A stretch of 53,234 bases of DNA from an uncultured Candidatus Saccharibacteria bacterium. Lineage in GTDB: Bacteria > Patescibacteriota > Minisyncoccia > Minisyncoccales > Staskawiczbacteraceae. Under the pieces are notes generated by a model. The model saw nothing but the letters and a program-made list of their open reading frames with translations, was not told the DNA's origin and made no database searches. A program made the position numbers and the translations under genes. The stretch covers positions 1 to 53,234 of the forward strand of contig CAYIVF010000002.1 in the NCBI GenBank assembly GCA_964366875.1. The letters run 5' to 3'. Positions 31,437-49,774 of this stretch are shown piece by piece (within the stretch, counting starts at the first letter, position 1; every line of letters begins with the position of its first letter).

Positions 31437-32819
31437 ATGAAAAATACTAAAAAGAAGATAAATTTAGAAAAATTTTGGAAAATAAATAAAGAAGAATTCA
31501 ATACTCAATTTTTTGGCATATCCAAAGATAATGAATTGGTGGTCAAGGAGGGAAATTATCAGTATAATATAGCTGATATCGTAGCAAAATTTGGCACGCC
31601 CTTGGAGATTTTTTTTCCGTTTGTTATAGAAAAAAGATATTTAGATTTGACGCAGATTTTTAATTTTCATATAAAAGACCATGAATATAAGGGGAGATTT
31701 TTTTATCATTATCCGATGAAAGTGAATCAGAATAAAGAGTTTGTTCTCCCTTTGATTTCTGAGGGCGCAAATTTGGAGACAGGTTCTTACAATGAACTTT
31801 GGCTTATACGCAAGTTGTGGGACCAAGACCAATTTCATTCCCGTATCAGAATTATTTGCAATGGGCCCAAAACAGATAAATATTTGGGATTGATTAAGGA
31901 GTTGAAAGAAAATGGTCTTTCAATAATTCCAATAATTGAAGATATAAACGAATATGAAGCTTTAAAAGGCTATCGCGGAGATGTCGGAATAAGGGTCAAG
32001 CTTGATTTGAGGGTGAGTTCTCATTGGGACAAAAAAGATGATCGTTATGGTTTACTGGCAGAAGAAATTTATAGTTTGGGCCGTATTCGTAATTTAAAAA
32101 TATTGCATTATCATGTTGGTTCCCAGATAATGGGTCAAAAAGATTTGATTAATGCCGTCCGAACAGCAATCAAAATCTATGTTAAACTTAAAAAAAATAA
32201 TCCTTCCTTAGATACGTTTGATATCGGCGGGGGCTTTGCTATTCCCTACGAAAAAAAGATGCATTATGGAATTAATTCGGTGGTGAAAGGAATTATCAGC
32301 ACAATTATAAAAGCCTGCAAAGAGGGTAATGTTGCTCACCCAAATATTATTTGTGAATGGGGGCGCTATATAGTTGCTCCGTCACAAATCACGATTTTTA
32401 AAGTTTTATGCGCAAAACCGATTAATAACAAAGTGGTAAAAAGATGGTATATTATTGATGGCAGTTTTATAAACGACCTAATTGATACTTGGGCAATTCA
32501 TCAAAAATGGCATATTGTGCCGGTTACCAACTTAAATGCTCAGAAGCTAACAAGAGTTTGGTTAGCTGGCTCTTCTTGCGATTCAGATGATCGTTATACT
32601 GCTGGCGGAAGTTATATTTTGTTGCCACAAATAGAAGACATAAAAGATAATGAATATTTGACTATTGCTTTTTTTGATTCTGGAGCATATCAGGATCCTT
32701 TGGCGTCTCATCATTGTTTGTTATCTTCTCCGGCAAAAATTATTGCTCAAAACGGAGTAATAACAATAGCAAGACGGCGCGAAACATCAGATGAAGTCGG
32801 CAGAATTTTCGGCTGGTAA
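31437..32819 (+). CDS. speA: PLP-dependent Orn/DAP/Arg decarboxylase family 2, arginine decarboxylase (SpeA)-like, short form
   Basis: YHYPMKVNQNKEFV carries the PLP-Lys region YP.KVN. HYHVGSQI, FDIGGGFAIPY and AGSSCDSDD are also present. Confidence 0.65.
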   Translation: MKNTKKKINLEKFWKINKEEFNTQFFGISKDNELVVKEGNYQYNIADIVAKFGTPLEIFFPFVIEKRYLDLTQIFNFHIKDHEYKGRFFYHYPMKVNQNKEFVLPLISEGANLETGSYNELWLIRKLWDQDQFHSRIRIICNGPKTDKYLGLIKELKENGLSIIPIIEDINEYEALKGYRGDVGIRVKLDLRVSSHWDKKDDRYGLLAEEIYSLGRIRNLKILHYHVGSQIMGQKDLINAVRTAIKIYVKLKKNNPSLDTFDIGGGFAIPYEKKMHYGINSVVKGIISTIIKACKEGNVAHPNIICEWGRYIVAPSQITIFKVLCAKPINNKVVKRWYIIDGSFINDLIDTWAIHQKWHIVPVTNLNAQKLTRVWLAGSSCDSDDRYTAGGSYILLPQIEDIKDNEYLTIAFFDSGAYQDPLASHHCLLSSPAKIIAQNGVITIARRRETSDEVGRIFGW

Positions 32820-32830
32820 ATTTTTTCATT

Positions 32831-35287
32831 ATGAGTTTTTTATCTAAAATATTCGGGGACCCTAATGAAAAATATATAAAAGGATTGGGGCCCATAGTCC
32901 AAGAAATCAATAAACTTGAGGATAGTTTAAGCAAACTTTCTGATTTAGAGCTGAAAGAAAAAACTAAAGAATTAAAGCTTGAGCTAGCCGGAGGAAAAAC
33001 TTTGGACGATATACTTCCAACAGCTTTTGCTTTGGTAAGAGAATCAGCCAAAAGAACATTAAAGCAGCGCCACTTTGACAGCCAAATAATCGGCGGAATT
33101 GTTTTGCACCAGGGAAAAATTGCAGAAATGAAAACAGGCGAGGGAAAAACCTTGTCGGCAACTTTACCGGTATATTTGAACGCGCTAGAGCAGAAAGGAG
33201 TGCATGTTGTTACGGTAAACGATTATTTAGCAAAGAGGGATACAGTGTGGATGGGCCAGATTTACGATGCCCTGGGCCTTACAACAGCCTGCATAACCAA
33301 TGAGTCTGGATACATTTATGATTCTAACTTAAAAAATGAAGAGCAAGACAAGCAGAGAGATATTGAGGGCGGCTTTAAGGTGCAAAAGAATTATCTAAGG
33401 CCAGTCACAAAAAAAGAGGCCTATGCGGCTGACATTACTTATGGCACAAACAATGAATTCGGCTTTGATTATTTGAGAGATAATATGGCGCAAAATTTAT
33501 CTGATGTTTCCCAGCGCGGTTTTAACTTTGCCATAGTTGACGAAGTGGACTCTATTTTAATTGATGAAGCAAGGGTGCCTTTGATAATTTCCGGGCAAGC
33601 CGAAGAGGCAACAGAAAAATATTATCAGTTTGCTAAAATAGCAGCTCCCTTAGAAAAAGCTCAAGATTATGAACTTGATGAAAAAACAAAAACAGTTAAC
33701 TTCACAGAGCAGGGCCAGAACAACGTTGTAAAAAGCTTGGGATACGACCCCTGGCTAGACAACGATATTATTACAACGCATCAATTAGAGTCTGCCCTTA
33801 GGGCTAAAGCTCTGTTTTTTAAGGACAGAGATTATGTTGTAAAAGATGGAGAGATAATGATTATTGACGAGTTTACAGGCAGAATACTTCCGGGACGCAG
33901 GTGGTCGGCCGGGCTTCACCAGGCAGTGGAAGCAAAAGAAGGTGTCAAAGTGCAGCCCGAATCAATAACTATGGCAACAATCACTTTCCAGAATTATTTT
34001 AGAATGTACAAAAAGTTATCTGGAATGACAGGCACCGCCTTAACTTCTGCAGAAGAGTTTGATAAAGTTTACAAGTTAGAAGTTGTTTCAATTCCCACCA
34101 ATAAGCCCATGATAAGGCAGGATTTTAGCGACAAAGTTTATAAAACAGAAAACGGCAAGTTTACCGCAGCAGTAAGAGAAATAGAAGAATTGCACAAAAA
34201 AGGCCAGCCCATATTAGTAGGTACAAGGTCAGTTGAAAGAAATGAATATTTAGGAAAGCTGTTAGAAATAAAAGGAATACCCCATAATATTTTAAACGCT
34301 AAAAACCACGAAAGGGAAGGAGAGATTATAGCTCAGGCAGGCAAAAAGGGAGCCGTAACCATTGCCACAAACATGGCAGGCAGGGGAGTTGATATTATCT
34401 TGGGAGGCAACCCCTTTAATCCCGCAGAGGCAGAAGAGGTAAAGAAATTAGGGGGCCTGCACGTGATGGGAACCGAGAGGCACGAGGCAAGAAGAATAGA
34501 CAATCAGCTTAGAGGCAGGTCGGGCAGGCAGGGAGACCAGGGCTCTGCGCAGTTTTTTGTTTCTTTGGAAGACGATTTAATGAGAATATTCGGCGGAGAC
34601 AGGATAAAATCATTAATGACTGCTTTAAACATCCCAGAGGACGAACCCATACAAGCAGGAATGATTTCGGGAGCCATTGAATCAGCTCAAGAAAAGATTG
34701 AGGGTTTTAATTTTGACGCTCGCCACCATTTGCTAGAATACGACGACGTGCTCAACAAGCACAGGGAGATAATATACAAGAAACGCAAAGAAATATTAGT
34801 TTTGCAAGGCCTGTCCTTGCAAAACTACGTTTTGAATATAGTCAAAAAATCAGGGGTTTCAGAGGAGGATTATTTTAAAAAAGAAAAAGAAATTGGGCCA
34901 GATAACATGCGCCAACTAGAAAAATTCGTATGCCTTAGAGTCACAGATATGCTTTGGCAGGACCACTTGTCATATATGGACCACGTAAGAGATTCAGTAA
35001 GATTAAGAGCTTACGCTGGGAGAGATCCTTTGGTAGAGTATAAAAACGAGGGTCACAAGGCGTTCGGTCAATTGCTGGCAATGCTTGACGCCAGCATTGC
35101 AGAAAACATTATGAAAGCTGGTTTGCAGTCCCAGCAAAAGCCAATGCCGAACTCTAGGCCGGTTGAGGCAGGTAACAAGGAAATTGGCAGAAATTCGCCA
35201 TGTCCTTGTGGTTCTGGTAAAAAATATAAGAAGTGCGGCATGCTCGGGACAGAGGAACACAAGAGAAATATGGCACAAAAAAGATGA
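32831..35287 (+). CDS. secA: preprotein translocase ATPase SecA
   Basis: MKTGEGKTL is Walker A. VTVNDYLAKRD, DEVDSILIDEARVPLIIS, TNMAGRGVDI and the C-terminal Zn finger CPCGSGKKYKKC are present. Confidence 0.97.
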   Translation: MSFLSKIFGDPNEKYIKGLGPIVQEINKLEDSLSKLSDLELKEKTKELKLELAGGKTLDDILPTAFALVRESAKRTLKQRHFDSQIIGGIVLHQGKIAEMKTGEGKTLSATLPVYLNALEQKGVHVVTVNDYLAKRDTVWMGQIYDALGLTTACITNESGYIYDSNLKNEEQDKQRDIEGGFKVQKNYLRPVTKKEAYAADITYGTNNEFGFDYLRDNMAQNLSDVSQRGFNFAIVDEVDSILIDEARVPLIISGQAEEATEKYYQFAKIAAPLEKAQDYELDEKTKTVNFTEQGQNNVVKSLGYDPWLDNDIITTHQLESALRAKALFFKDRDYVVKDGEIMIIDEFTGRILPGRRWSAGLHQAVEAKEGVKVQPESITMATITFQNYFRMYKKLSGMTGTALTSAEEFDKVYKLEVVSIPTNKPMIRQDFSDKVYKTENGKFTAAVREIEELHKKGQPILVGTRSVERNEYLGKLLEIKGIPHNILNAKNHEREGEIIAQAGKKGAVTIATNMAGRGVDIILGGNPFNPAEAEEVKKLGGLHVMGTERHEARRIDNQLRGRSGRQGDQGSAQFFVSLEDDLMRIFGGDRIKSLMTALNIPEDEPIQAGMISGAIESAQEKIEGFNFDARHHLLEYDDVLNKHREIIYKKRKEILVLQGLSLQNYVLNIVKKSGVSEEDYFKKEKEIGPDNMRQLEKFVCLRVTDMLWQDHLSYMDHVRDSVRLRAYAGRDPLVEYKNEGHKAFGQLLAMLDASIAENIMKAGLQSQQKPMPNSRPVEAGNKEIGRNSPCPCGSGKKYKKCGMLGTEEHKRNMAQKR

Positions 35288-35289
35288 TT

Positions 35290-35323
35290 AAAATGTAAAT
35301 ATGGATTTTCTTATTTACATTTT
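35290..35323 (+). terminator. secA terminator hairpin
   Basis: aaaatgtaaata (35290-35301) pairs perfectly with tatttacatttt (35312-35323), giving a 12-bp stem and 10-nt loop. Confidence 0.6.
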
Positions 35324-35347
35324 AGGCGTTAAGTGTAAATAAAAAAA

Positions 35348-35375
35348 TTGACAGAAGATTTAAAGTTGATAATAT
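35348..35375 (+). promoter_or_regulatory. near-consensus sigma70-type promoter
   Basis: TTGACA-16 nt-TAATAT, 21 nt upstream of the 35396 ATG. Confidence 0.55.
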
Positions 35376-35395
35376 GAAGTATAAGCAATAAATTT

Positions 35396-35707
35396 ATGGC
35401 AGAAGAAACACTCGCAAAAAAAGATATTCAAGAACTTTTGGCTGGGCAGACAACAGTCATTTTAGAAGCGGTTGATGAAAAATTGTCCGAAGTAAAAATA
35501 GAAATGGTGAATATGGAGGAACGAATAGATAAAAAAATAGAAGTTTTGGATTTGAAATTTTCCGAAAAATTTGATAAGCTCACCACAACACTTGATAATT
35601 TTCTAAAAAGAATGATCGATATTGAAGATGAATTTACAATGATGCGCAACGATATCAATAGGATCAAAAAAACCATAAAAGAAAAGCTTGGAGTGGAATT
35701 GTCTTAG
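35396..35707 (+). CDS. hypothetical coiled-coil protein
   Basis: The 103-aa product is heptad-rich and charged. No family was recognised. Confidence 0.5.
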   Translation: MAEETLAKKDIQELLAGQTTVILEAVDEKLSEVKIEMVNMEERIDKKIEVLDLKFSEKFDKLTTTLDNFLKRMIDIEDEFTMMRNDINRIKKTIKEKLGVELS

Positions 35708-35816
35708 TTGGGTCAAAAATAATTTTGTAGCATAACTAACATTTGAGTAGTACCTGCGCCTGCCGAAAGGGAGTGTGCAGGTTTTTACTTTTATGCTACA
35801 ATTTATTAAATAACCG

Positions 35817-36002
35817 ATGAAAAATTTTAGTAAGACTAAAAAAGAAACTTATTATAAATGCGTTCATTGCGGAGATGAGATTTTTTGGAACACAAATAAA
35901 AAATTAACAGAATGTAGGTGCAGGAAAATTTATGTTGATGGCTGCGAGTTTTATGTTCGCATAGGCGGAGACAAGGAAGATTATGAAATAATTCAAAAAT
36001 AG
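35817..36002 (+). CDS. hypothetical small zinc-ribbon protein
   Basis: The 61-aa product has CVHCGDE...CRCRK, i.e. four Cys in a CxxC...CxC arrangement. Confidence 0.45.
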   Translation: MKNFSKTKKETYYKCVHCGDEIFWNTNKKLTECRCRKIYVDGCEFYVRIGGDKEDYEIIQK

Positions 36003-36088
36003 ATTTGTGGCAAATTCGCGCTAAATCAGTGCGGGTTTTTTCGTATACAATCAGATATAATTGGATATAGTTGGAGTCGTGCAAAAAA

Positions 36089-36117
36089 TTGACAAATCTT
36101 AAAATTTCATTTAATTT
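36089..36117 (+). promoter_or_regulatory. candidate sigma70-type promoter
   Basis: TTGACA-17 nt-TAATTT. A strong RBS (aaaggagatgtATG) follows at 36165-36178. Confidence 0.45.
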
Positions 36118-36175
36118 AAAATGAGGAACGTGGAATTGTGTTCAATCTGTAATTTGAAAATAAGAAAGGAGATGT

Positions 36176-37057
36176 ATGGCCAATCAAACTTTTCTCGAAA
36201 AAGTTGGAGCACGGAGTGTGCTTCTTGGTGACGGTGCAATGGGAACTGAGCTACAAAGACGTGGTTTTGTAGTGAGTGGATGCATGGAGTCAGCTAACGT
36301 TATAAATCCTGAGTTGGTGCAGGGGATTTATTGCGATTACTACAATGCCGGCTCGCAAATTGTTGAAACCAACAGTTTTGGTGCTAATCGTATTCGCCTA
36401 CAGAGATATGGACTGTCTCAAAAAATCGTCGAACTCAATAGGTTAGCCGTAGAACTTGCTAAGGCAGTTCGCCCGAAAGGATGTTTTATCGGCGGTTCGA
36501 TTGGGCCGACAGGTAGCATTCTTGAACCGTTTGGCGATTTAAAGTTACGGATAGCTTACGATGCATTTGCCGAACAAGCTGAAGCGCTTGCAGGGGGCGG
36601 AGCGGATGTGATTTACGTCGAAACTATGTCTGCGCTCGATGAAGTCGAAGTTGTCCTAAGAGCAGTAAAGGAAAGAACCGGTTTGCCAACAATAGTCACG
36701 ATGGTTTTTAAGGCTGGTAGAACCGGGCTTCGTACTTCTTTCGGTGTGGATGTGGTTACGGCAGTGCAAAAACTCTCTGAGTTTGGCGCTGATGTTATTG
36801 GAGCAAACTGCGGAGACCCAGAGGATATAATTGTCGCTATTCGGGAAATGCGCCCACTTACGGCAAAACCTATAATTGCTCAACCAAATGCTGGAATTCC
36901 AGAATTGGTGGATGGAACACCCGTTTATAGGCAAACGCCCGAAGCATTGCAATTTTGTATCGAGCAATTGCTAAAGACGGGTGTTAATATTATAGGCGGT
37001 TGTTGTGGGGTTGGACCAGCTCATATAAGGGCTATGCGGCAGTTGATGCTGTCATGA
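36176..37057 (+). CDS. stand-alone homocysteine S-methyltransferase domain protein (MetH N-terminal / MmuM-like)
   Basis: LLGDGAMGTELQRRG, ETNSFGAN, GSIGPTG, NCG and GGCCGVGPAHI (the Zn-binding Cys cluster) are typical of the Pfam S-methyl_trans domain. The first 60 nt contain 28 G+C. Confidence 0.8.
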   Translation: MANQTFLEKVGARSVLLGDGAMGTELQRRGFVVSGCMESANVINPELVQGIYCDYYNAGSQIVETNSFGANRIRLQRYGLSQKIVELNRLAVELAKAVRPKGCFIGGSIGPTGSILEPFGDLKLRIAYDAFAEQAEALAGGGADVIYVETMSALDEVEVVLRAVKERTGLPTIVTMVFKAGRTGLRTSFGVDVVTAVQKLSEFGADVIGANCGDPEDIIVAIREMRPLTAKPIIAQPNAGIPELVDGTPVYRQTPEALQFCIEQLLKTGVNIIGGCCGVGPAHIRAMRQLMLS

Positions 37058-37090
37058 TCGCGAAGCTTTGGCGTGCAAAAGCGCAGCAAT

Positions 37091-37119
37091 GACCTTTGGG
37101 TAAAACTGAAGGTCTTTTT
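37091..37119 (+). terminator. intrinsic terminator
   Basis: gacctt-tgggtaaaactg-aaggtc followed by ttttt. Confidence 0.6.
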
Positions 37120-37216
37120 ATTTGAGTTAAAATTATGAGTTTACAAAAGTTGACAGAGCGATTTTGGATTAAAAAACGTCTGAAAAATAGCATTAAAAGT
37201 TATTCACTCATAGCTC

Positions 37217-37244
37217 TGGACAAGGGGTTATGAGCTGGTAATAT
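37217..37244 (+). promoter_or_regulatory. candidate promoter of the GACAAGGGG class
   Basis: TGGACAAGGGGT, a 16-nt spacer with TGn, then TAATAT (37239-37244). It shares GACAAGGGG with the rnpB promoter and with the minus-strand promoter at 52113-52142. Confidence 0.4.
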
Positions 37245-37364
37245 TACTTTAGGAACATTAAAATTTTAAGGATTTACTCGCCCCGTTAGAAATTTAAATT
37301 ATAGATTTTTAACGGGACGAGCAGTCGAGATTCGTTATGTGTGAGGTATTACTCAGTTCTGACT

Positions 37365-37451
37365 TCCTGCGGGTAAGGAAATAAATATAAAAAATGCGGA
37401 ATACTAAATACAGAGGAGCATCAAAAGCTAACGAGAGAAAAGGAAATATAA
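37365..37451 (+). pseudogene. orphan copy B of the secA C-terminal zinc-finger tail
   Basis: It translates in one frame as SCG*GNKYKKCGILNTEEHQKLTREKEI*, compared with the live secA PCGSGKKYKKCGMLGTEEHKRNMAQKR*. The Ser codon is replaced by TAA and there is no upstream ORF. Confidence 0.75.
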
Positions 37452-37480
37452 AAAAAGCCCAAACTATGTTGGGTTTGGGT
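37450..37480 (-). terminator. intrinsic terminator of the Dabb gene (possibly bidirectional)
   Basis: The minus-strand RNA reads acccaaac-ccaacata-gtttgggc followed by ttttttt. Confidence 0.65.
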
Positions 37481-37488
37481 TAATGGTG

Positions 37489-37812
37489 TTAGCTGTTGCG
37501 AACGGGTGATGGGTGATGAATATCACCCACTTGCCAGTCAGCGACCTTGCAAAGGATGTCAGTAAGCTCTTTGTGTTTTGGGTGATTTCTAAAATTCTGC
37601 ATGGCTTCATCGTCGCTAAAGACGGCGATTTCAACCAGGTGCACGTTCTTCCTGAGGTCGAGATTGTGGCCGACCGTCCAAAAAAGAATTCCCGCTTCTT
37701 TCCCGCCACAGTCTTTGGCTAGCGATTGATAGCGTTCGTAGATTTCTTGTTTGATTTCCTCCGATGCTCCTGGCTTGAACCCGATTAGTACAACATGCCA
37801 GAGGTTTCCCAT
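37489..37812 (-). CDS. Dabb (stress-responsive alpha/beta-barrel) domain protein
   Basis: The 107-aa product has HVVLIGFKPGASEEIKQEIYERYQSL...HLVEIAVFSDDEAMQNFRNHPKH, which is typical of Dabb. The 60-nt sample 37501-37560 contains 31 G+C. Confidence 0.8.
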   Translation of the reverse strand: MGNLWHVVLIGFKPGASEEIKQEIYERYQSLAKDCGGKEAGILFWTVGHNLDLRKNVHLVEIAVFSDDEAMQNFRNHPKHKELTDILCKVADWQVGDIHHPSPVRNS

Positions 37813-37870
37813 TTTTTAGTCCTTTCCTGCTGCGGGTTGTGGGGTACGGATAGTTCAAGGTTCTATTTTG

Positions 37871-37899
37871 ATATTAGTACGCAGAGCTCCTAATGTCAA
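37871..37899 (-). promoter_or_regulatory. consensus sigma70-type promoter for the Dabb gene
   Basis: The minus strand reads TTGACA-17 nt-TAATAT (plus strand tgtcaa at 37894-99 and atatta at 37871-76). The RBS aggaaagga lies upstream of the ATG. Confidence 0.6.
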
Positions 37900-37917
37900 T
37901 TATAGTGAAATTTTTAT

Positions 37918-37992
37918 AAGTGCAGTAAAAAATATAAAAAATGCGGAATGTTAAATACCGAGGAACATCAAAAATTAATGAGAGAGAAGTAA
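37918..37992 (+). pseudogene. orphan copy C of the secA C-terminal tail
   Basis: It translates as KCSKKYKKCGMLNTEEHQKLMREK*, preceded by an in-frame TGA at 37906-08. It shares 52/60 nt with copy B over KYKKCG..EK (hand alignment). Confidence 0.75.
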
Positions 37993-38001
37993 ACCATAGG
38001 T

Positions 38002-38439
38002 ATGAAATATATAGAGTTAAAACATAAAAATGGACCAGTTATCAGATTCCGTCTTTACGAGAACAACTCGCCGGCTACTTGCAAAGCTTTTATCGATGCA
38101 CTTCCCTTTAATGCCAAAGCTGTCCAAGCAAGATTTGCAGGAGAGGAAATTTGGATACAAAAAGGGCCTTATTTAAAAATTAATCAAGAAAATGCCACTA
38201 TACTTTTAAAACCTGGTGAGTTAGGCTATGCGTCCCCAAACAAAAAAAGTGAAATTGGGCAAAGCATAGCTATAGTTTATGGAGAGGCGAAACTTTCAGG
38301 CCGTGTTAATGTTTTTGCCATGGTTTTTAAAGAAGATTTTAAAAAACTGCAAAAACTTGGCGAAAAAATATGGCTTGGGGGCAGTAGAGTTTTACGTTTT
38401 GAACTTAAGGAAAAAAAGAAGCGACATGAAAGTATCTAA
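38002..38439 (+). CDS. cyclophilin-like-fold protein (DUF3830-like)
   Basis: The 145-aa product has ENNSPATCKAFIDALPFNAKAVQARFAGEEIWI, resembling DUF3830 family N-termini. Confidence 0.45.
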   Translation: MKYIELKHKNGPVIRFRLYENNSPATCKAFIDALPFNAKAVQARFAGEEIWIQKGPYLKINQENATILLKPGELGYASPNKKSEIGQSIAIVYGEAKLSGRVNVFAMVFKEDFKKLQKLGEKIWLGGSRVLRFELKEKKKRHESI

Positions 38440-39322
38440 AATAATAATTTTAGTTTTGATAATCGCGGCGTTTGGAGCGGGTATATATTTTAAAGACGAT
38501 GCCATAAGGCTTTATAATTCCGCCAGCTGGCGGATTAATAAACAAGTTCAGGATTTTAAGAAAACAGAAATCGGAACTCTGATAACAGAGGCTGGCAAAG
38601 AGATTTTTACTCCGCCTCCGCTGAATATCGGCGGAGGACCCAAAGGGTACCCCACCAATGTTGTTTTACTGAAAAGCAAGGTGATTGAAGAAACCAACAT
38701 TCAGAGAGAAATAAACGGATTGCCAGTCCTAAAAGAAAATGCACAGCTTGATAATGCAGCTTCAGCTAAAGCCAATGATATGTTCCAAAACCAGTATTTT
38801 GAGCACACGTCTCCTGCGGGTATTGACGCTGGTAAGTTAGTACAGAGTTACGGATATGATTACATAATTGCCGGGGAAAATTTAATTTTAGGGAATTTTT
38901 CCAGTGAAAAAGAAGTGGTTTCAGATTGGATGGCAAGCTCGGGGCATAGAGCAAATATTTTAAATAATAGATACGCAGAAATAGGAGTGGCTGTTGTAAA
39001 AGGAACATATAAAGGCGAAAGTGTCTGGATTGGCGTGCAGGAGTTTGGGCTCCCCTTGTCTGCTTGCGCAGAGCCCGATGCTAGCTTAAAAGCAGAAATT
39101 GAGTCAGATAAAATGCAGCTAAATATTCTATCTTCGCAAATTGATGAAAAAAGAAGCGAAATCAACAGCGCAAATCCAAGAGCTGCGTATTATAGCCAAC
39201 TGGTTGATGACTATAATCAATCAGTTGAAAGTTATAACTCTTTAGCAGAAGCCGTAAAAATCCTTATCTCTCGCTTTAATAACCAGGTAAATATTTTTAA
39301 CCAGTGCGTCGCCGGCAAATAA
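38426..39322 (+). CDS. membrane-anchored CAP/SCP/PR1-like (YkwD-type) domain protein with a C-terminal coiled coil
   Basis: The start is set to MKVSKIIILVLIIAAFGAGIYF (a TM anchor). The CAP core reads NDMFQNQYFEHTSP...GENL...WMASSGHRANILNNRYAEIGVAV. Confidence 0.75.
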   Translation: MKVSKIIILVLIIAAFGAGIYFKDDAIRLYNSASWRINKQVQDFKKTEIGTLITEAGKEIFTPPPLNIGGGPKGYPTNVVLLKSKVIEETNIQREINGLPVLKENAQLDNAASAKANDMFQNQYFEHTSPAGIDAGKLVQSYGYDYIIAGENLILGNFSSEKEVVSDWMASSGHRANILNNRYAEIGVAVVKGTYKGESVWIGVQEFGLPLSACAEPDASLKAEIESDKMQLNILSSQIDEKRSEINSANPRAAYYSQLVDDYNQSVESYNSLAEAVKILISRFNNQVNIFNQCVAGK

Positions 39323-42916: not shown

Positions 42917-43384
42917 ATGGCCAAGAAATGTGATCATAAGAGCGTTGGAATGTTGATTTGGAAGGAAGGAAAACTCCTTCTTATCGAAAGAAAAAAACCG
43001 CCATTTGGTTTTGCACCGCCTGCAGGGCACATTGACGGGGATTTAACTTTTGAAGATGCCGTAAAACGCGAACTAAAAGAGGAAGTTGGATTAAACACAA
43101 AAAGTATTGAATTAGTTATAGAAGGCAGGAAAGAAAATCATTGCAGAAGAGAAGATGGGACGTGGCACTATTGGAAAATATATAAAGTAGATGCTAATGG
43201 AGAAGTTCTTGCGAATCAGGACGAAACAAAACAGGTGGGTTGGTATGATAAAGTACAAATCAATATGCTCGCTAAAAAAACCGAGAAATATATTAAAGGC
43301 GAAATTACAGAAGATTCATGGCAGAAATCGCCAGGTATAGAACCCGTCTGGTATGAATGGTTTTTGCAATTAAAAATAATTTGA
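42917..43384 (+). CDS. NUDIX-family hydrolase (variant Nudix box)
   Basis: GHIDGDLTFEDAVKRELKEEVGL carries REUxEExGU intact, but the upstream Glu position is Leu. Confidence 0.7.
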   Translation: MAKKCDHKSVGMLIWKEGKLLLIERKKPPFGFAPPAGHIDGDLTFEDAVKRELKEEVGLNTKSIELVIEGRKENHCRREDGTWHYWKIYKVDANGEVLANQDETKQVGWYDKVQINMLAKKTEKYIKGEITEDSWQKSPGIEPVWYEWFLQLKII

Positions 43385-43388
43385 ATAT

Positions 43389-43820
43389 ATGAAAATTTAT
43401 ATTTGTGGGAGCATGCATTTTGCAAAAGAGATGGTTGAAACCAAAAAACTGCTAGAGAAAAATGGGTTTGAAGTTGATTTTGCACCAGACACATACGATT
43501 GTCTTAAAAATCCCAACTTAAAACTAAATGAGGACCTTGAGCATTGCGAAAGAACAGATATTATGAAAGCCTGCATGCATTTGCAGGAAAATTGTGACGC
43601 AGTGCTTATTCTAAATCACCCCAAAGAAGGGATAGATGGTTATATCGGGACTCACTCTCTAATAGAATTAGGTCTTGCATATTATTTAAAACAAAAAATA
43701 TTTCTGCTTTACCCGCCTCCGCCAAAAGAAGAAGCAAGATATCATGTTGAAGTTATGCATATGAAACCGATTATCCTTAATGGTGATATAAATAAAATAA
43801 AAGAATATTTAGTAAGCTAA
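43389..43820 (+). CDS. nucleoside 2-deoxyribosyltransferase / DNPH1(Rcl)-like protein, paralog 1
   Basis: MKIYICGSMHF and DAVLILNHPKEGIDGYIGTHSLIELGLAYYLKQKIFLL parallel the Rcl motifs IYFCGSIRGG and ...SLGVGYELGRA...ILCL (catalytic Glu in ELG). Confidence 0.55.
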   Translation: MKIYICGSMHFAKEMVETKKLLEKNGFEVDFAPDTYDCLKNPNLKLNEDLEHCERTDIMKACMHLQENCDAVLILNHPKEGIDGYIGTHSLIELGLAYYLKQKIFLLYPPPPKEEARYHVEVMHMKPIILNGDINKIKEYLVS

Positions 43821-43829
43821 AATTTTTTT

Positions 43830-44264
43830 ATGATAATCACACTTTGCGGAAGCGTAAAATTCGCCGATAAATTCGTTGAAACATATAATCTTTTGGAAAA
43901 AATGGGCCACGAGCCGAAGATGCACGAATTAATGTTTAAAATTGCTGATGGCACAGCTCCAGAGCTTATTGATAATATTTCTCGGGAGCATTGGTCGGCA
44001 AAAAGAAAGCACGGCTTTATAAAATGGTGGTATAATTCCATCAAAAACAGCGACGCAATTCTGGTTTTAAATTACGATAAAAAAGGAATAAAAAACTATA
44101 TTGGCGGGAATACTTTGATGGAAATGGGTTTCGCCCACGTAAACGATAAAAAAGTATTTTTGCTAAATCCGATGCCAGAAGAAGTTTCTTACGCAGATGA
44201 GATAAAAGCAATGACCGACAATATTTTGAATGGCGATTTGAGTAAAATTAATTTTGAAGCATGA
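43830..44264 (+). CDS. nucleoside 2-deoxyribosyltransferase / DNPH1(Rcl)-like protein, paralog 2
   Basis: MIITLCGSVKF and DAILVLNYDKKGIKNYIGGNTLMEMGFAHVNDKKVFLL give the same architecture as the upstream paralog. Confidence 0.55.
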   Translation: MIITLCGSVKFADKFVETYNLLEKMGHEPKMHELMFKIADGTAPELIDNISREHWSAKRKHGFIKWWYNSIKNSDAILVLNYDKKGIKNYIGGNTLMEMGFAHVNDKKVFLLNPMPEEVSYADEIKAMTDNILNGDLSKINFEA

Positions 44265-45217: not shown

Positions 45218-46258
45218 ATGGAAAAAGTTAACTACAAACAAATTTACCAAAAACTTACTAAAGGCCTTGGTCAAAAAACTAAGGATATTTTTGATCGCAG
45301 ATTTGGCGTCGGGGCACCCTCTGGGTCGGGCGAGCCCGAAACCCTTGAAGCTATTGGCCAGACCCTAGGCATTACTCGTGAAAGAGTGCGCCAAATAGAG
45401 GAAGTTGGTTTTAACTTTGTAAGAAAACAGAGCAAAGAGCTGTTAGACAATGTTTTTTCTGAATTTAACCTTTATTTTAAAAACAAAGGCGGGGTCAAAA
45501 AAGAAGACATTATTTTAGAGGAATTGGGAGGCAAAAATCAAAAACCTTATGTTTTGTTTTTACTTACTTTGGGAGACCAGTTTTTTAGAGTTTGCGAAAA
45601 AAAGGACTTTTACTATTTTTGGTCAACTATTCCTGATGCGCAGAATAAAGTAAAGGAAACCTTAAATTCTTTAGTGTCTGATATGCAGAAAATAGGAAAG
45701 CCAGTATCTAAAAAAGAGTTTTATGCAGCTCTTTCTCCAAAATTGGGATTTTCAGAAGAGGTCTTGGCTTCTTATCTTGAAGTTTCAAAAAAAATACAAA
45801 AAAACAAGGAAGGAAAATTAGGTTTAATTGAGTGGCCGGAAATAAAGCCCAGGGGAGTAAAGGATAAAGCCTTTTTAGTGTTTAAAAAGCATCAAAAGCC
45901 CCTTCATTTTACAAAAGTGGCAGAACTAATAGATAAGTTAGAGTACAACTTGCCAAACAAAAAAACCTATCCTCAAACAGTTCATAATGAATTAATAAAA
46001 GATTCAAGGTTTGTGCTGGTGGGCCGCGGAACTTATGCTTTAGCTGAATGGGGGTATGTACCTGGCACCATAAAAGACATAATTACAAAAGTTTTAAAAG
46101 AAAAGAAAGAGCCTACATGCAGGGACGATATTGTAAAAGAGGTGCTTTTGCAGAGATTGGTTGCTAAAAATACCGTATTGATGAATTTAAACAACAAAAA
46201 GCATTTTGCCAAAGATTCAAACGACAGGTATTTTTTAAGAAAAACCCAAACAGCGTAA
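45218..46258 (+). CDS. DNA-binding protein: sigma-70 region-4-like HTH plus a C-terminal HARE-HTH-like winged helix
   Basis: TLEAIGQTLGITRERVRQIEEVGFNFVRK is the region-4 signature. The C-terminal LHFTKVAELI...VHNELIKDSRFVLVGRGTYALAEWGY is HARE-HTH-like, as in the RNAP delta subunit. Confidence 0.6.
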   Translation: MEKVNYKQIYQKLTKGLGQKTKDIFDRRFGVGAPSGSGEPETLEAIGQTLGITRERVRQIEEVGFNFVRKQSKELLDNVFSEFNLYFKNKGGVKKEDIILEELGGKNQKPYVLFLLTLGDQFFRVCEKKDFYYFWSTIPDAQNKVKETLNSLVSDMQKIGKPVSKKEFYAALSPKLGFSEEVLASYLEVSKKIQKNKEGKLGLIEWPEIKPRGVKDKAFLVFKKHQKPLHFTKVAELIDKLEYNLPNKKTYPQTVHNELIKDSRFVLVGRGTYALAEWGYVPGTIKDIITKVLKEKKEPTCRDDIVKEVLLQRLVAKNTVLMNLNNKKHFAKDSNDRYFLRKTQTA

Positions 46259-48067: not shown

Positions 48068-49774
48068 ATGAAGAGCGAAACTGTTTTTTTTGGACTAACT
48101 ACTTTTAGAAACCAGCGCAAGAAATTTGGCATTAAAACCGACGACAGGCGGAGGCATTTTTACTGTCTTGGAAAAACCGGCATGGGAAAATCCAATATGA
48201 TGGAAAGCATGGCCATACAGGATATTCAGGCGGGCCGCGGAGTGGCCTATGTGGATCCGCACGGAGAGGGAGCTACAAAACTTCTTGATTTTGTGCCGGC
48301 AAAAAGAATCAACGACGTTGTATATTTAAACCCAGCTGACTTAGACTATCCTGTTGCTTTTAACGTAATGGAAAGGGTTGATTTCAGATACAGGCACCTG
48401 GTAGCCGGCGGTCTTATGGGCGTTTTTAAAAAAGTGTGGCCAGATGTTTGGTCAGCTCGCATGGAATATATTTTGAACAATTCCATATTAGCTCTTTTAG
48501 AGTATCCCGACTCAACAATTCTCGGCATAAATAGAATGTTAGCTGACGTAGAATACAGAGAAAAAGTGGTTTCTAAAATTACAGACCCCATAGTGAAATC
48601 TTTTTGGGTTACAGAATACGCCAGATACACCCAGCGTTATGAGATTGAAGCTACGGCTGCCATACAAAACAAAGTAGGCCAGTTTATTTCCAACCCCTTG
48701 ATAAGAAACATTATCGGCCAGACAAAATCCACCATAAATATGCGAGACATTATGGACAAAGAAAAGATAATGATTATGGATTTAGCGAAAGGAAGAATTG
48801 GCGAAGACAACTCCAGGCTTTTGGGAGCGCTTTTAATTACAAAACTGCAATTAGCTGCCATGTCCAGAGTTGATATTCTTGAAGAGGACAGAAAAGACTT
48901 TTATTTGTATGTAGACGAGTTCCAAAACTTTGCTACGGAATCCTTTGCAAATATTTTGTCTGAAGCTAGAAAATACAGATTAAATATTACTTTGGGCCAC
49001 CAATATATTACTCAAATGGAAGAAGAAGTAAGAGACGCAGTTTTTGGCAACGTAGGAACTTTGGCTGTTTTCAGGATTGGAGCCGAAGACGCAGAATTTT
49101 TAGAAAGAGAATTTTCGCCTCAGTTTACCGCTGAAGATTTAGTTAATCTGCCAAAATACAATATTTATTTAAAATTAATGATTGACGGAGTTGCTGGTCA
49201 CCCCTTTTCAGCTGAAACCCTTCCTCCGCCAATACCCTTAGAAGAATCAAACAAAGAAAAAATTATCAAAGCGTCAAGAGAAAGATACGGCATTAAAAAA
49301 GAAATAGTTGAAGATAAAATTTCTCGCTGGTCGGGATTCGCAGAGGAACAAACAAATAAGAACAAACCAAGAGACCAGCAGCAAAACAATCCCCCAACAA
49401 ACCAAGCGAATCAAACACTGCTTTACGATGCAGTTTGTTCTAATTGCGGAAAACCCACAAAAGTTGTTTTTCCGCCAGAAAAGGGAAGGCCTGTTTATTG
49501 TAAATCCTGCTTAAAGAAGATGAAATCTCCCAACCAAGATTCTTTTGGGCAGGAGGTTTTAAAAGTAGAAAATATCCCATTTCATAATCCTAAAAGAAGG
49601 CCGGAAGACAAGCCCAAATCCGCGCATGGGCGGAAAGAGATTAATTTATCTGAGCTTAAAAAAGCATTAGAAGAATCGCTGGAAGGGGAGAATGCAAGCG
49701 ATGAGGAATCGGAGCAGGAGGAAGGGGGCGACAAAAAAGGAGTTATAAAACCAGGCCAGACGGTGCATCTATGA
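48068..49774 (+). CDS. FtsK/HerA-superfamily P-loop ATPase of the VirD4/TraD (type IV coupling protein)-like type, lacking a TM anchor, with a C-terminal zinc ribbon and disordered tail
   Basis: CLGKTGMGKSN is Walker A and DFYLYVDEFQNF is Walker B. RKYRLNITLGHQY is present. The C-terminal CSNCGKPTKVVFPPEKGRPVYCKSCLKK is flanked by Q/N/P- and E/K-rich segments. Confidence 0.7.
   Translation: MKSETVFFGLTTFRNQRKKFGIKTDDRRRHFYCLGKTGMGKSNMMESMAIQDIQAGRGVAYVDPHGEGATKLLDFVPAKRINDVVYLNPADLDYPVAFNVMERVDFRYRHLVAGGLMGVFKKVWPDVWSARMEYILNNSILALLEYPDSTILGINRMLADVEYREKVVSKITDPIVKSFWVTEYARYTQRYEIEATAAIQNKVGQFISNPLIRNIIGQTKSTINMRDIMDKEKIMIMDLAKGRIGEDNSRLLGALLITKLQLAAMSRVDILEEDRKDFYLYVDEFQNFATESFANILSEARKYRLNITLGHQYITQMEEEVRDAVFGNVGTLAVFRIGAEDAEFLEREFSPQFTAEDLVNLPKYNIYLKLMIDGVAGHPFSAETLPPPIPLEESNKEKIIKASRERYGIKKEIVEDKISRWSGFAEEQTNKNKPRDQQQNNPPTNQANQTLLYDAVCSNCGKPTKVVFPPEKGRPVYCKSCLKKMKSPNQDSFGQEVLKVENIPFHNPKRRPEDKPKSAHGRKEINLSELKKALEESLEGENASDEESEQEEGGDKKGVIKPGQTVHL

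Follow-up and report, generated by a model that had tools for sequence, protein, structure and literature searches.

The end of secA has very probably been displaced serially, in its C-terminal codons, in the 53,234-nt contig CAYIVF010000002.1 of an uncultured bacterium of the Candidate Phyla Radiation (CPR); this whole stretch is called the window below. Two non-coding copies of the secA 3' end, orphans B and C, lie downstream of the intact gene (Table 1). Comparison with related genomes shows that new secA ends have apparently entered the coding core of the SEC-C zinc finger again and again along with foreign genes, while the old end stayed downstream. It also shows the ancestral state, in which secA had a short zinc-finger tail that abutted or overlapped a gene for a CAP-domain protein. 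We count at least three blocks of tail plus cargo, and the site is a recurrent insertion hotspot across Paceibacteria-type CPR genomes, not a one-off scar. A first-pass annotation, made from the letters of the window alone, had proposed a nested scar of two successive insertions. Repeated insertion was borne out, but there are at least three blocks, the DUF3830 gene at the downstream end is itself cargo, and the scar gives way to a lineage-wide hotspot with conserved right-end modules.

Two orphan tails of secA

The live secA tail reads CPCGSGKKYKKCGMLGTEEHKRNMAQKR-stop (35201-35287), and Pfam recognized SecA_DEAD, P-loop_SecA, SecA_SW, SecA_PP_bind and SEC-C domains on the gene product, which is 92% identical to P0002. 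Orphan B (37365-37451, plus strand) reads SCG-stop-GNKYKKCGILNTEEHQKLTREKEI-stop. The coordinates and reading frames first given for the live copy, B and C were correct. A repeat search placed the live tail (A) and both orphans in one family, as had been claimed, with B and C 85% identical over 67 nt and the live tail more diverged (A/B 61%). A 35-nt pattern from the B/C consensus matched twice in 53 kb, only at B and C, whereas 0.00 matches were expected from 100 shuffles. Over 62 nt, orphan C and the live tail of L123, one of the related loci described below, were 93.5% identical; B was 81-87% identical to live secA tails of other genomes. This likeness starts at 37366-37367 in B (second Cys codon) and at 37924-37926 in C (K-K-Y). 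Because of these matches to live tails elsewhere, the similarity of B and C reflects homology and not Lys-codon bias, an objection that the first-pass annotation had itself raised.

It had also considered that the orphans could be the ends of expressed small SEC-C proteins. In the tail frame, neither B nor C is covered by an ORF of 25 aa or more. Orphan B has an in-frame stop and lacks a start codon and the first Cys; C lacks both N-terminal Cys codons and has no start codon past the upstream TGA. Neither has the intact ORF, start codon and full C-x-C...C-H/C motif of a stand-alone SEC-C small protein.

The last bases of C form a purine-rich stretch 9 nt before the DUF3830 ATG. A +1-frame ATG (AAA-AATG-CGG) occurs in both orphans and opens 28-29-aa ORFs, MRNTKYRG.. 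(37394-37483) and MRNVKYRG.. (37941-38027). In L118, the equivalent +1-frame orphan ATG is the only available start of dinB, whose own ATG is mutated to ATA.

The array was recovered in an independent replicate-sample assembly with 1 mismatch in 17.8 kb, and in another sample's assembly with 2 mismatches in 4.1 kb and both flanks. All contigs retrieved by exact look-ups of SecA and CAP had the same array; none was a population variant lacking a block.

Table 1. Features of secA, the inserted blocks and the first backbone gene (positions in the window; stop codons in translations are written as stop)
Feature	Position	Strand	Remarks
secA	32831-35287	+	818 aa; anchor gene, SEC-C zinc-finger tail intact; ORF and Pfam
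Putative recombination zone	35165-35236	+	resemblance switches from L083 to the 'EEHKRNM' (t2a) lineage; ends at K-K-C codons 35228-35236
Live tail remainder A	35228-35287	+	KKCGMLGTEEHKRNMAQKR-stop; left end of block 1
Block 1 cargo	35288-37087	+	hairpin, promoter, three genes, terminator
Hairpin	35288-35324		block 1
Promoter	35348-35375		block 1
Coiled-coil ORF	35396-35707	+	block 1; 103 aa
DUF7695 gene	35817-36002	+	block 1; Pfam
Terminator	36012-36038		block 1
Homocysteine S-methyltransferase (HMT) gene	36176-37057	+	block 1; Pfam
Right end 2 (RE2)	37088-37388	+	right-end module of block 1; conserved downstream of secA in relatives
RE2 terminator	37091-37114		
RE2 outward promoter	37217-37244		TGGACA-16-TAATAT
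RE2 hairpin	37277-37321		~20 bp
RE2 pseudo-tail	37365-37388		SCG-stop-GNKY; TCC TGC GGG TAA GGA AAT AAA TAT
Orphan B remainder	37389-37451	+	KKCGILNTEEHQKLTREKEI-stop; putative end of secA live before arrival of block 1
Block 2 cargo	37458-37899	-	terminator hairpin, Dabb gene, promoter
Block 2 terminator hairpin	37458-37479		
Dabb gene	37489-37812	-	Pfam
Dabb promoter	37899-37871	-	TTGACA-17-TAATAT
Orphan C	37918-37992	+	KCSKKYKKCGMLNTEEHQKLMREK-stop, in-frame TGA ahead; putative older displaced secA end
DUF3830 gene	38002-38439	+	block 3 cargo; Pfam
CAP-domain gene	38426-39322	+	first backbone gene; directly behind secA in relatives

The empty site and the left breakpoint

Judged by its SecA homologs, the window belongs to the Candidatus Staskawiczbacteria-like CPR bacteria (Paceibacteria) of Hainich groundwater. 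We gathered ~165 related loci (L numbers) by scanning genomes and metagenomes once each and by looking up exact proteins, and searched 0.77 Mb downstream and 0.65 Mb upstream of secA in them. The conserved order in relatives was MurB - S30AE/hpf - secA - variable interval - (NUDIX) - CAP - (DUF1653) - NTPase_I-T - Metallophos - secD - secF. In the closest relative, L083 (SecA 92% identical), the tail KKWKKCHGKK-stop overlaps the CAP gene by 14 nt, and the CAP ATG lies inside the secA tail, at TGC-CAT-GG. This locus, whose sequence reaches 567 nt past secA, has neither cargo nor orphan tails. The first-pass annotation would have been contradicted by orphans in relatives that lack the cargo, and over that distance L083 has none. 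CAP also lies 0-18 nt behind a long-tailed secA in L146, L130 (same aquifer) and L007. Given these empty sites, everything from ~35228 to ~38425 was probably inserted, DUF3830 included.

The body and the tail of secA differ in their affinities. The DNA was 90-95% identical to that of L083 as far as ~35165, and this identity was lost ~30 nt 5' of the CPC codons. From AAGGAAATTGGC on, secA matched L086, whose tail is of the 'EEHKRNM' type (t2a), and not L083. The left breakpoint in the window maps ~60 nt upstream of K-K-C. Tail A shares 82% identity, across 101-111 nt, with the live tails of L086 and L088, and P0014, P0017 and P0038 also have a tail of its type. In L086, a homolog of the coiled-coil ORF (82% aa identity) stands directly behind the t2a tail. 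The empty site and the tail/body mosaic uphold the first-pass proposal that DNA entered at the secA 3' end with a replacement end.

An AT-rich inverted repeat, AAAATGTAAATA..TATTTACATTTT, begins at the first base past the secA stop codon (35288-35324); it was not conserved behind the t2a tails of L086, L087 and L088.

The contigs of the three closest relatives (L083, L084, L085) end 61-611 nt past secA. Contig breaks are expected at a population-variable site and may bias views of the region that are based on metagenome-assembled genomes.

Cargo of the three blocks

Pfam and signal checks confirmed the first annotation of the cargo genes, the TTGACA-17-TAATAT promoter and the terminators. The claim that the cargo is GC-richer held in part: the HMT and Dabb windows have a GC content of 0.46-0.49 compared with 0.30-0.36 around them, but parts of secA also reach 0.45-0.50. 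The nearest HMT homologs were at most 62% identical, and the phyla named were non-CPR (Ignavibacteria, KSB1, Bacteroidota and the like), which suggests that the gene reached CPR bacteria from outside their gene pool. Of the block 1 genes, only the coiled-coil ORF occurred in the ~165 related loci.

Block 1 ends in RE2. Copies that were 79-84% identical over ~200 nt were found in L087, L088 and L165, and partial ones in L118 and L086. All lay downstream of secA; none occurred elsewhere in the sequence searched. In L086, an RE2-type promoter stands 7 nt before the dinB ATG. In L087 and L088, the pseudo-tail of RE2 is followed by t1-type tail remainders (KHCHGK-stop, KKCHGK-stop) and unrelated cargo. 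Orphan B appears to be composite, with the RE2 pseudo-tail (37365-37388) joined to the remainder of an earlier live tail (37389-37451). The first-pass annotation had taken the TAA in B for a decayed Ser codon. However, the same pseudo-tail has TGA at that position in L087 and L088, so the stop codon belongs to a conserved module and is not local decay. tblastn had suggested that a 'RDSLC...' string upstream of B was a GRNDLC relic; for the same reason, it more plausibly belongs to RE2, given the conservation of RE2 in these two loci. The RE2 hairpin lies ~65 nt from the junction, and the fold of RE2 with B gave a z-score of -2.0.

Block 2 is a minimal self-contained unit of the B remainder, terminator hairpin, Dabb gene and promoter. 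The sole Dabb match in related loci was a distant one (35%) elsewhere in L009; apart from it, neither Dabb nor DUF7695, nor the ornithine decarboxylase gene upstream of secA (see below), was found in these loci.

The DUF3830 gene of block 3 was missing in relatives. Its homologs were 55-69% identical, none more than 69%, and all came from CPR bacteria. The first-pass annotation had asked whether secA abuts a DUF3830-like gene in some relatives. It does in the P0244 contig, where the homolog lies 4 nt past a live secA, but in the closest relative CAP comes next and DUF3830 is cargo. In L175, a secA with a t3-type tail is followed by a hairpin spacer, an orphan tail GFKRCHGK-stop and then DUF3830. 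A secA end followed by DUF3830 thus seems to occur naturally elsewhere, which would be expected if the two had been imported in one piece. In another CPR lineage (L173/L174, 4750-5000), the gene closely preceding DUF3830 is not secA but a tRNA gene; tRNA genes are classical integration sites.

The C-terminal extension of DUF3830, KEKKKRHESI-stop (38405-38439, ~10 codons), runs past the Pfam domain and into the start of CAP. Compared with the secA/CAP junction of L083, it has the same frame, the same 14-nt overlap and the same stop position, and DUF3830 homologs are mostly shorter. Its identity to a KKCHGK-stop-type tail is ~55% in A-rich sequence, which is not significant. The last ~10 codons may be a fourth remnant, of a short KKCHGK-stop-type tail that formerly overlapped the CAP start. 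In L153, a 279-aa ORF clearly ends in ..SGKKYKKCHGK-stop.

A hotspot across related genomes

We searched all six frames of the related loci for the tail core K-[KRHNQ]-C-(HG|CG|G[MILD][LI]). Matches comprised 155 live secA ends, 23 sites downstream on the same strand, one downstream on the other strand and two upstream. Part of the locus set had been selected with the tail pattern. The orphans of L001, L002, L013, L014, L023, L025, L087 and L088 are free of this bias, as these loci were chosen via the live secA; L118, L166 and L175 were among the further loci with orphans. The secA-CAP interval spans -13 nt to 4.6 kb. It holds dinB, NUDIX and UDG genes, HicAB and Gp49/XRE toxin-antitoxin pairs, and a nucleotidyltransferase gene, and also EcoRI-type methylase, NYN, RhuM, GmrSD/HNH and AAA_14 ATPase genes and unknowns, so that restriction-modification and defence are represented.

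The tails of the 120 closest SecA proteins fell into six types: t1 (..KKCHGK-stop, n=71), t2 (..KKCGMLNTEEHQKL..-stop, n=32), t3 (CGAKHPDGRPIKYKHCHGK-stop, n=11), t2a (..EEHKRNM..-stop, n=4), t4 (n=1) and t5 (n=1). The types interleave along the ranking by SecA similarity: the tails of the three nearest relatives are t1, t2 and t1, and that of the secA in the window is t2a. Tail swapping is therefore likely to be frequent.

Some replacements brought no cargo. In L013 (10490-10615), L175 (4831-4955), L166, L124 and L119, a spacer of 45-110 nt separates the live tail (t3 or t4) from an orphan t1 or t2 tail downstream. The live secA of these loci has an 'insertion-type' zinc finger (CGAKxxDGxPxKYKHCHGK or CGAxNPxTGxxYKYKxCGLINAPxHK). 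The spacer hairpin is GC-rich in L013 and L175, and the cargo-less loci share a AGCGGAGTCC-like box near the stop codon.

One toxin-antitoxin cassette (Gp49-like toxin, XRE antitoxin, TTGACA..TATACT promoter) stands directly behind secA in both L118 and L165. The secA tails in front of them differ; the cassettes themselves share 75% identity across 814 nt.

Joints and the right-end motif RE1

The left limits of the orphans differ by family. The full GRN..CPC motif is retained in L104, L166 and L001. The limit is the second Cys in the RE2 family, in L014/L162/L002 and in the first L025 orphan, G-S-G in L013, L124/L119 and L153, K-K-Y in orphan C, and exactly K-K-C in the RE1 family, L118, L023 and L175. 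All orphans retain K-K-C onward, and RE1 and RE2 end exactly at this point, yet the left limits of tail similarity differ. The variable limits fit non-uniform joints followed by erosion.

RE1 (CCATTCGTATCGCACATC) is an 18-21-nt motif and not palindromic. Allowing up to 2 substitutions, we found eight matches (six distinct), all on the same strand and all downstream of secA (L025; L110; L115/L151; L094/L131/L162); L100/L155 has a diverged copy. Every copy abuts K-K/R-C, which is followed by a t1, t2 or t5 remainder. This is the strongest hint of a defined recombination site. The window has no RE1, and the RE1 cassettes lack the RE2 hairpin.

A model of serial displacement

We propose at least three events, in each of which incoming DNA would have recombined inside the ~70-nt coding core of SEC-C (the last ~30 codons) and never 3' of K-K-C. 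Each piece would have brought a secA end that ran from roughly K-K-C to the stop codon and, behind it, genes of its own; the resident end would have become a non-coding orphan downstream. The probable order is tail C with DUF3830, then tail B with Dabb, then tail A with the coiled-coil ORF, DUF7695, HMT and RE2. Alternatively, part of the array could have been imported ready-assembled.

The tight packing or overlap of secA and its neighbour may mean that only inserts rebuilding the secA end were tolerated. The old end left in place could then serve as the start region of the downstream gene. In many loci, dinB starts at the secA stop codon, and in L118 it appears to start inside the orphan. 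The outward promoter of RE2 can restore downstream transcription, and the need to keep the neighbour's start region would account for its presence.

As the enzymology, we favour uptake of DNA from related CPR cells, with RecA-type recombination anchored in the SEC-C codons, which alone are strongly conserved in the DNA at the end of the gene. The opposite joint would then be illegitimate or of short homology, i.e. the event would be a homology-facilitated illegitimate recombination, and cassettes could later have been reshuffled between genomes by tail-tail recombination. The anchor side at the left breakpoint is compatible with this route. No competence genes were among the Pfam matches of the window. 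The displacement history combined with this enzymology is a possibility that we place slightly short of probable.

Several observations weigh against this enzymology. RE1, RE2 and the limit at K-K-C look more like a defined recombination site. Among ~12 distinct t2 orphans, none starts 3' of K-K-C although 16-20 further codons were available; if joints were uniform along the tail, the chance of this would be ~1e-4. In L025 (11940-13724), three serial RE1 copies separate a methyltransferase, a nucleotidyltransferase and a HicAB block. RE1 ends unrelated cassettes, and the t1, t2 and t5 remainders to which it is joined share only ~9 nt, too little for RecA. RE2 and the t2a left end bracket wholly different cargo in the window, L087 and L088. 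The non-CPR origin of HMT means that at least one step was not an exchange between relatives, and no donor genome was found for any block of the window.

Alternative explanations

The same displacement history could have been made by a site-specific cassette system acting in trans. Its composite site would be RE1 or RE2 plus a secA-tail mimic from K-K-C on. A recombinase encoded elsewhere would recombine it with the K-K-C codons and their surroundings, either in secA or in an orphan already present, and the newest cassette would stand next to secA. Such a system would resemble integron attI x attC recombination, integrative mobile elements exploiting Xer (IMEX) and integrase-less cis-mobilisable elements. 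Besides the right-end observations given above, it is favoured by the conservation of the stop codon in the RE2 pseudo-tail across genomes with unrelated cargo and by the absence of orphans beginning past K-K-C. The left breakpoint and the orphan left boundaries also lie within the same ~70 nt, and the cassettes are small, self-contained and often carry defence or toxin-antitoxin genes.

On the other hand, no integrase, transposase or recombinase was among the Pfam matches of the whole window, in agreement with the first-pass annotation. None was found in the Pfam-scanned cargo of L087, L088 and L166, nor was a recombinase evident by eye in the ORF lists of ~25 arrays. There is no conserved dyad-symmetric core or attC-like hairpin at the junction, the orphan left boundaries vary by family, and the window lacks RE1. 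Its cassettes have their own promoters and include one inverted gene. The t2 tail pattern, RE1 and RE2 each had 0 matches in 2.9 million viral contigs. We regard a site-specific system in trans as conceivable but rather doubtful.

A more specific form of this proposal seems rather unlikely: that Paceibacteria-group CPR bacteria have an integron-like cassette system that uses the zinc-finger codons of secA as its attachment site and has no integrase linked to it. If it were true, a host enzyme, or a recombinase with its gene at another locus, would insert, stack and exchange cassettes at K-K-C, and the SecA C-terminus would be rewritten at each event.

Direct repeats at short distances on one strand, as seen here, could also be local duplications of the secA end (by slippage or unequal crossing-over) that later diverged, with the genes between them arriving separately. 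We consider this very improbable. Orphans C and B are nearer to live tails of other genomes than to tail A of their own genome, tail A is of a different type, which in other genomes accompanies the coiled-coil ORF and RE2, and the closest relative has neither repeats nor cargo.

It is equally improbable that the orphans are functional parts, either ends of small SEC-C-motif proteins or RNA or regulatory elements, and not scars. They sit directly upstream of the next gene and can supply a ribosome-binding region or start codon, L001 has a second SEC-C motif in a 68-aa ORF with an ATG, and RE2 folds into a long hairpin. However, B and C have stop codons and no start codon, and the fold of RE2 with B reached only the z-score given above. 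Rfam gave nothing beyond chance microRNA-level matches, whether at the gathering threshold in the window or by E-value for 35100-38600 and the L025 array. Reuse as a start region would explain why the orphans were retained, not how they arose.

An assembly artefact, in which strain variants of the secA end were chained by the assembler, has a negligible probability: contigs of close relatives tend to break just past secA, but the array was recovered from replicate samples and its blocks hold complete genes with their own signals.

Comparison with known systems

The closest formal parallel to serial displacement at secA is with the arrays of polymorphic toxin loci: Rhs, CdiA-CT orphan and type VI secretion system (T6SS) effector-immunity arrays. 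Such arrays were reportedly described by Jackson and colleagues in 2009. There, too, the 5' gene is constant and a new 3' tip arrives with one or more downstream genes. Old tips without a start codon pile up downstream, all oriented like the gene and the most recent one adjoining it, and no integrase is involved. Unlike in these arrays, the anchor is an essential housekeeping gene, and the tips are zinc-finger tails of 20-30 codons and not toxin domains. The cargo is accessory, defence or metabolic (HMT, Dabb, DUF3830, DUF7695, coiled-coil ORF) and includes no cognate immunity genes. The secA array also differs in having conserved right ends (RE1, RE2) and no evident selection for tip diversity.

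Homology-facilitated illegitimate recombination during natural transformation is reported to have been described by de Vries and Wackernagel, by Prudhomme and colleagues, and by Meier and Wackernagel (cited via PMC5361080 and PMC3240628). The secA array resembles its products in that foreign DNA is added beside one conserved anchor and no mobile-element genes are needed. It is unlike them in that confinement to one ~70-nt anchor is needed repeatedly and that the conserved right ends are not explained by this route alone. The same mechanism has been proposed for formally identical T6SS/Rhs arrays (Kirchberger et al. 2017, PMC5361080). Integron cassette arrays are compared with T6SS arrays in PMC5361080.

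As in elements that integrate at the 3' ends of genes, the insert at secA supplies a replacement 3' end and the displaced end forms a direct repeat at the far side. Prophages, integrative and conjugative elements, integrative and mobilisable elements and islands integrate into the 3' ends of genes or tRNA genes and restore them; they can accrete in tandem, and integrase-less cis-mobilisable forms are included. Tandem arrays from repeated use of one site, and relatives with an empty site, are common to both. The secA array differs in that no recombinase was found in the window or the examined cargo, in its variable repeat boundaries, and in its unit size of 0.5-2.2 kb in the window. The window has no tRNA or tmRNA genes. 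To our knowledge, secA is not a described integration target, and a literature search found no report of it in this role or of such arrays in CPR bacteria.

Integrons, whose attC sites are imperfect palindromes of 57-141 nt at cassette 3' ends, and the Xer-dependent IMEX at dif share with the secA loci an ordered array of small cassettes at a fixed anchor, with short conserved sites between them (RE1 plus K-K-C). In both, the cassettes encode no recombinase and the cargo is often toxin-antitoxin or defence genes. In contrast to integrons, the window has no intI, and the upstream neighbours of secA are the hpf/S30AE and ornithine decarboxylase genes. No attC-type folded palindrome or dif-like 28-mer is present. 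The anchor lies inside a coding sequence that is rebuilt at each event, and the cassettes in the window have their own promoters. The secA array thus lacks a defining feature of each family: it has no toxin/immunity genes, integrase, intI, attC or dif site.

Other genes near secA

Between the S30AE/hpf gene and secA lies a gene for a pyridoxal phosphate-dependent ornithine/arginine decarboxylase (31437-32819). In L083-L087, hpf adjoins secA directly; in L088 the slot holds PvlArgDC, a pyruvoyl arginine decarboxylase that is not homologous. No orphan gene ends flank the decarboxylase insertion of the window. A NUDIX gene and two unknowns (143 and 144 aa) lie at 42917-44264 between secD and secF, which are adjacent in L087; no duplicated secD end or orphan gene end was found at this insertion. 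Downstream of secF are a gene for a Sigma70_r4 plus HARE-HTH protein (45218-46258) and a gene (48068-49774) for a HerA/DUF87 ATPase that has weak TraG/TrwB coupling-protein matches and a treble-clef zinc finger; the ATPase could bear on DNA transfer.

Implications

CPR bacteria (Patescibacteria) have tiny genomes with few recognizable mobile elements, and little is understood of the ways in which they gain accessory and defence genes. The secA locus would be a recurrent entry point for foreign genes, where the end of an essential gene is rewritten at each arrival and the old ends form a readable history. A SEC-C tail without a gene, downstream of secA, would serve as a sequence signature of recent gene gain in CPR genomes. 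The hotspot would explain the mosaic SecA C-termini of the lineage and may explain why assemblies break just past secA. If the right-end motifs are true recombination sites, they would define a new kind of cassette system. If they are not, the locus would be a clear natural case of homology-anchored illegitimate insertion outside toxin loci.

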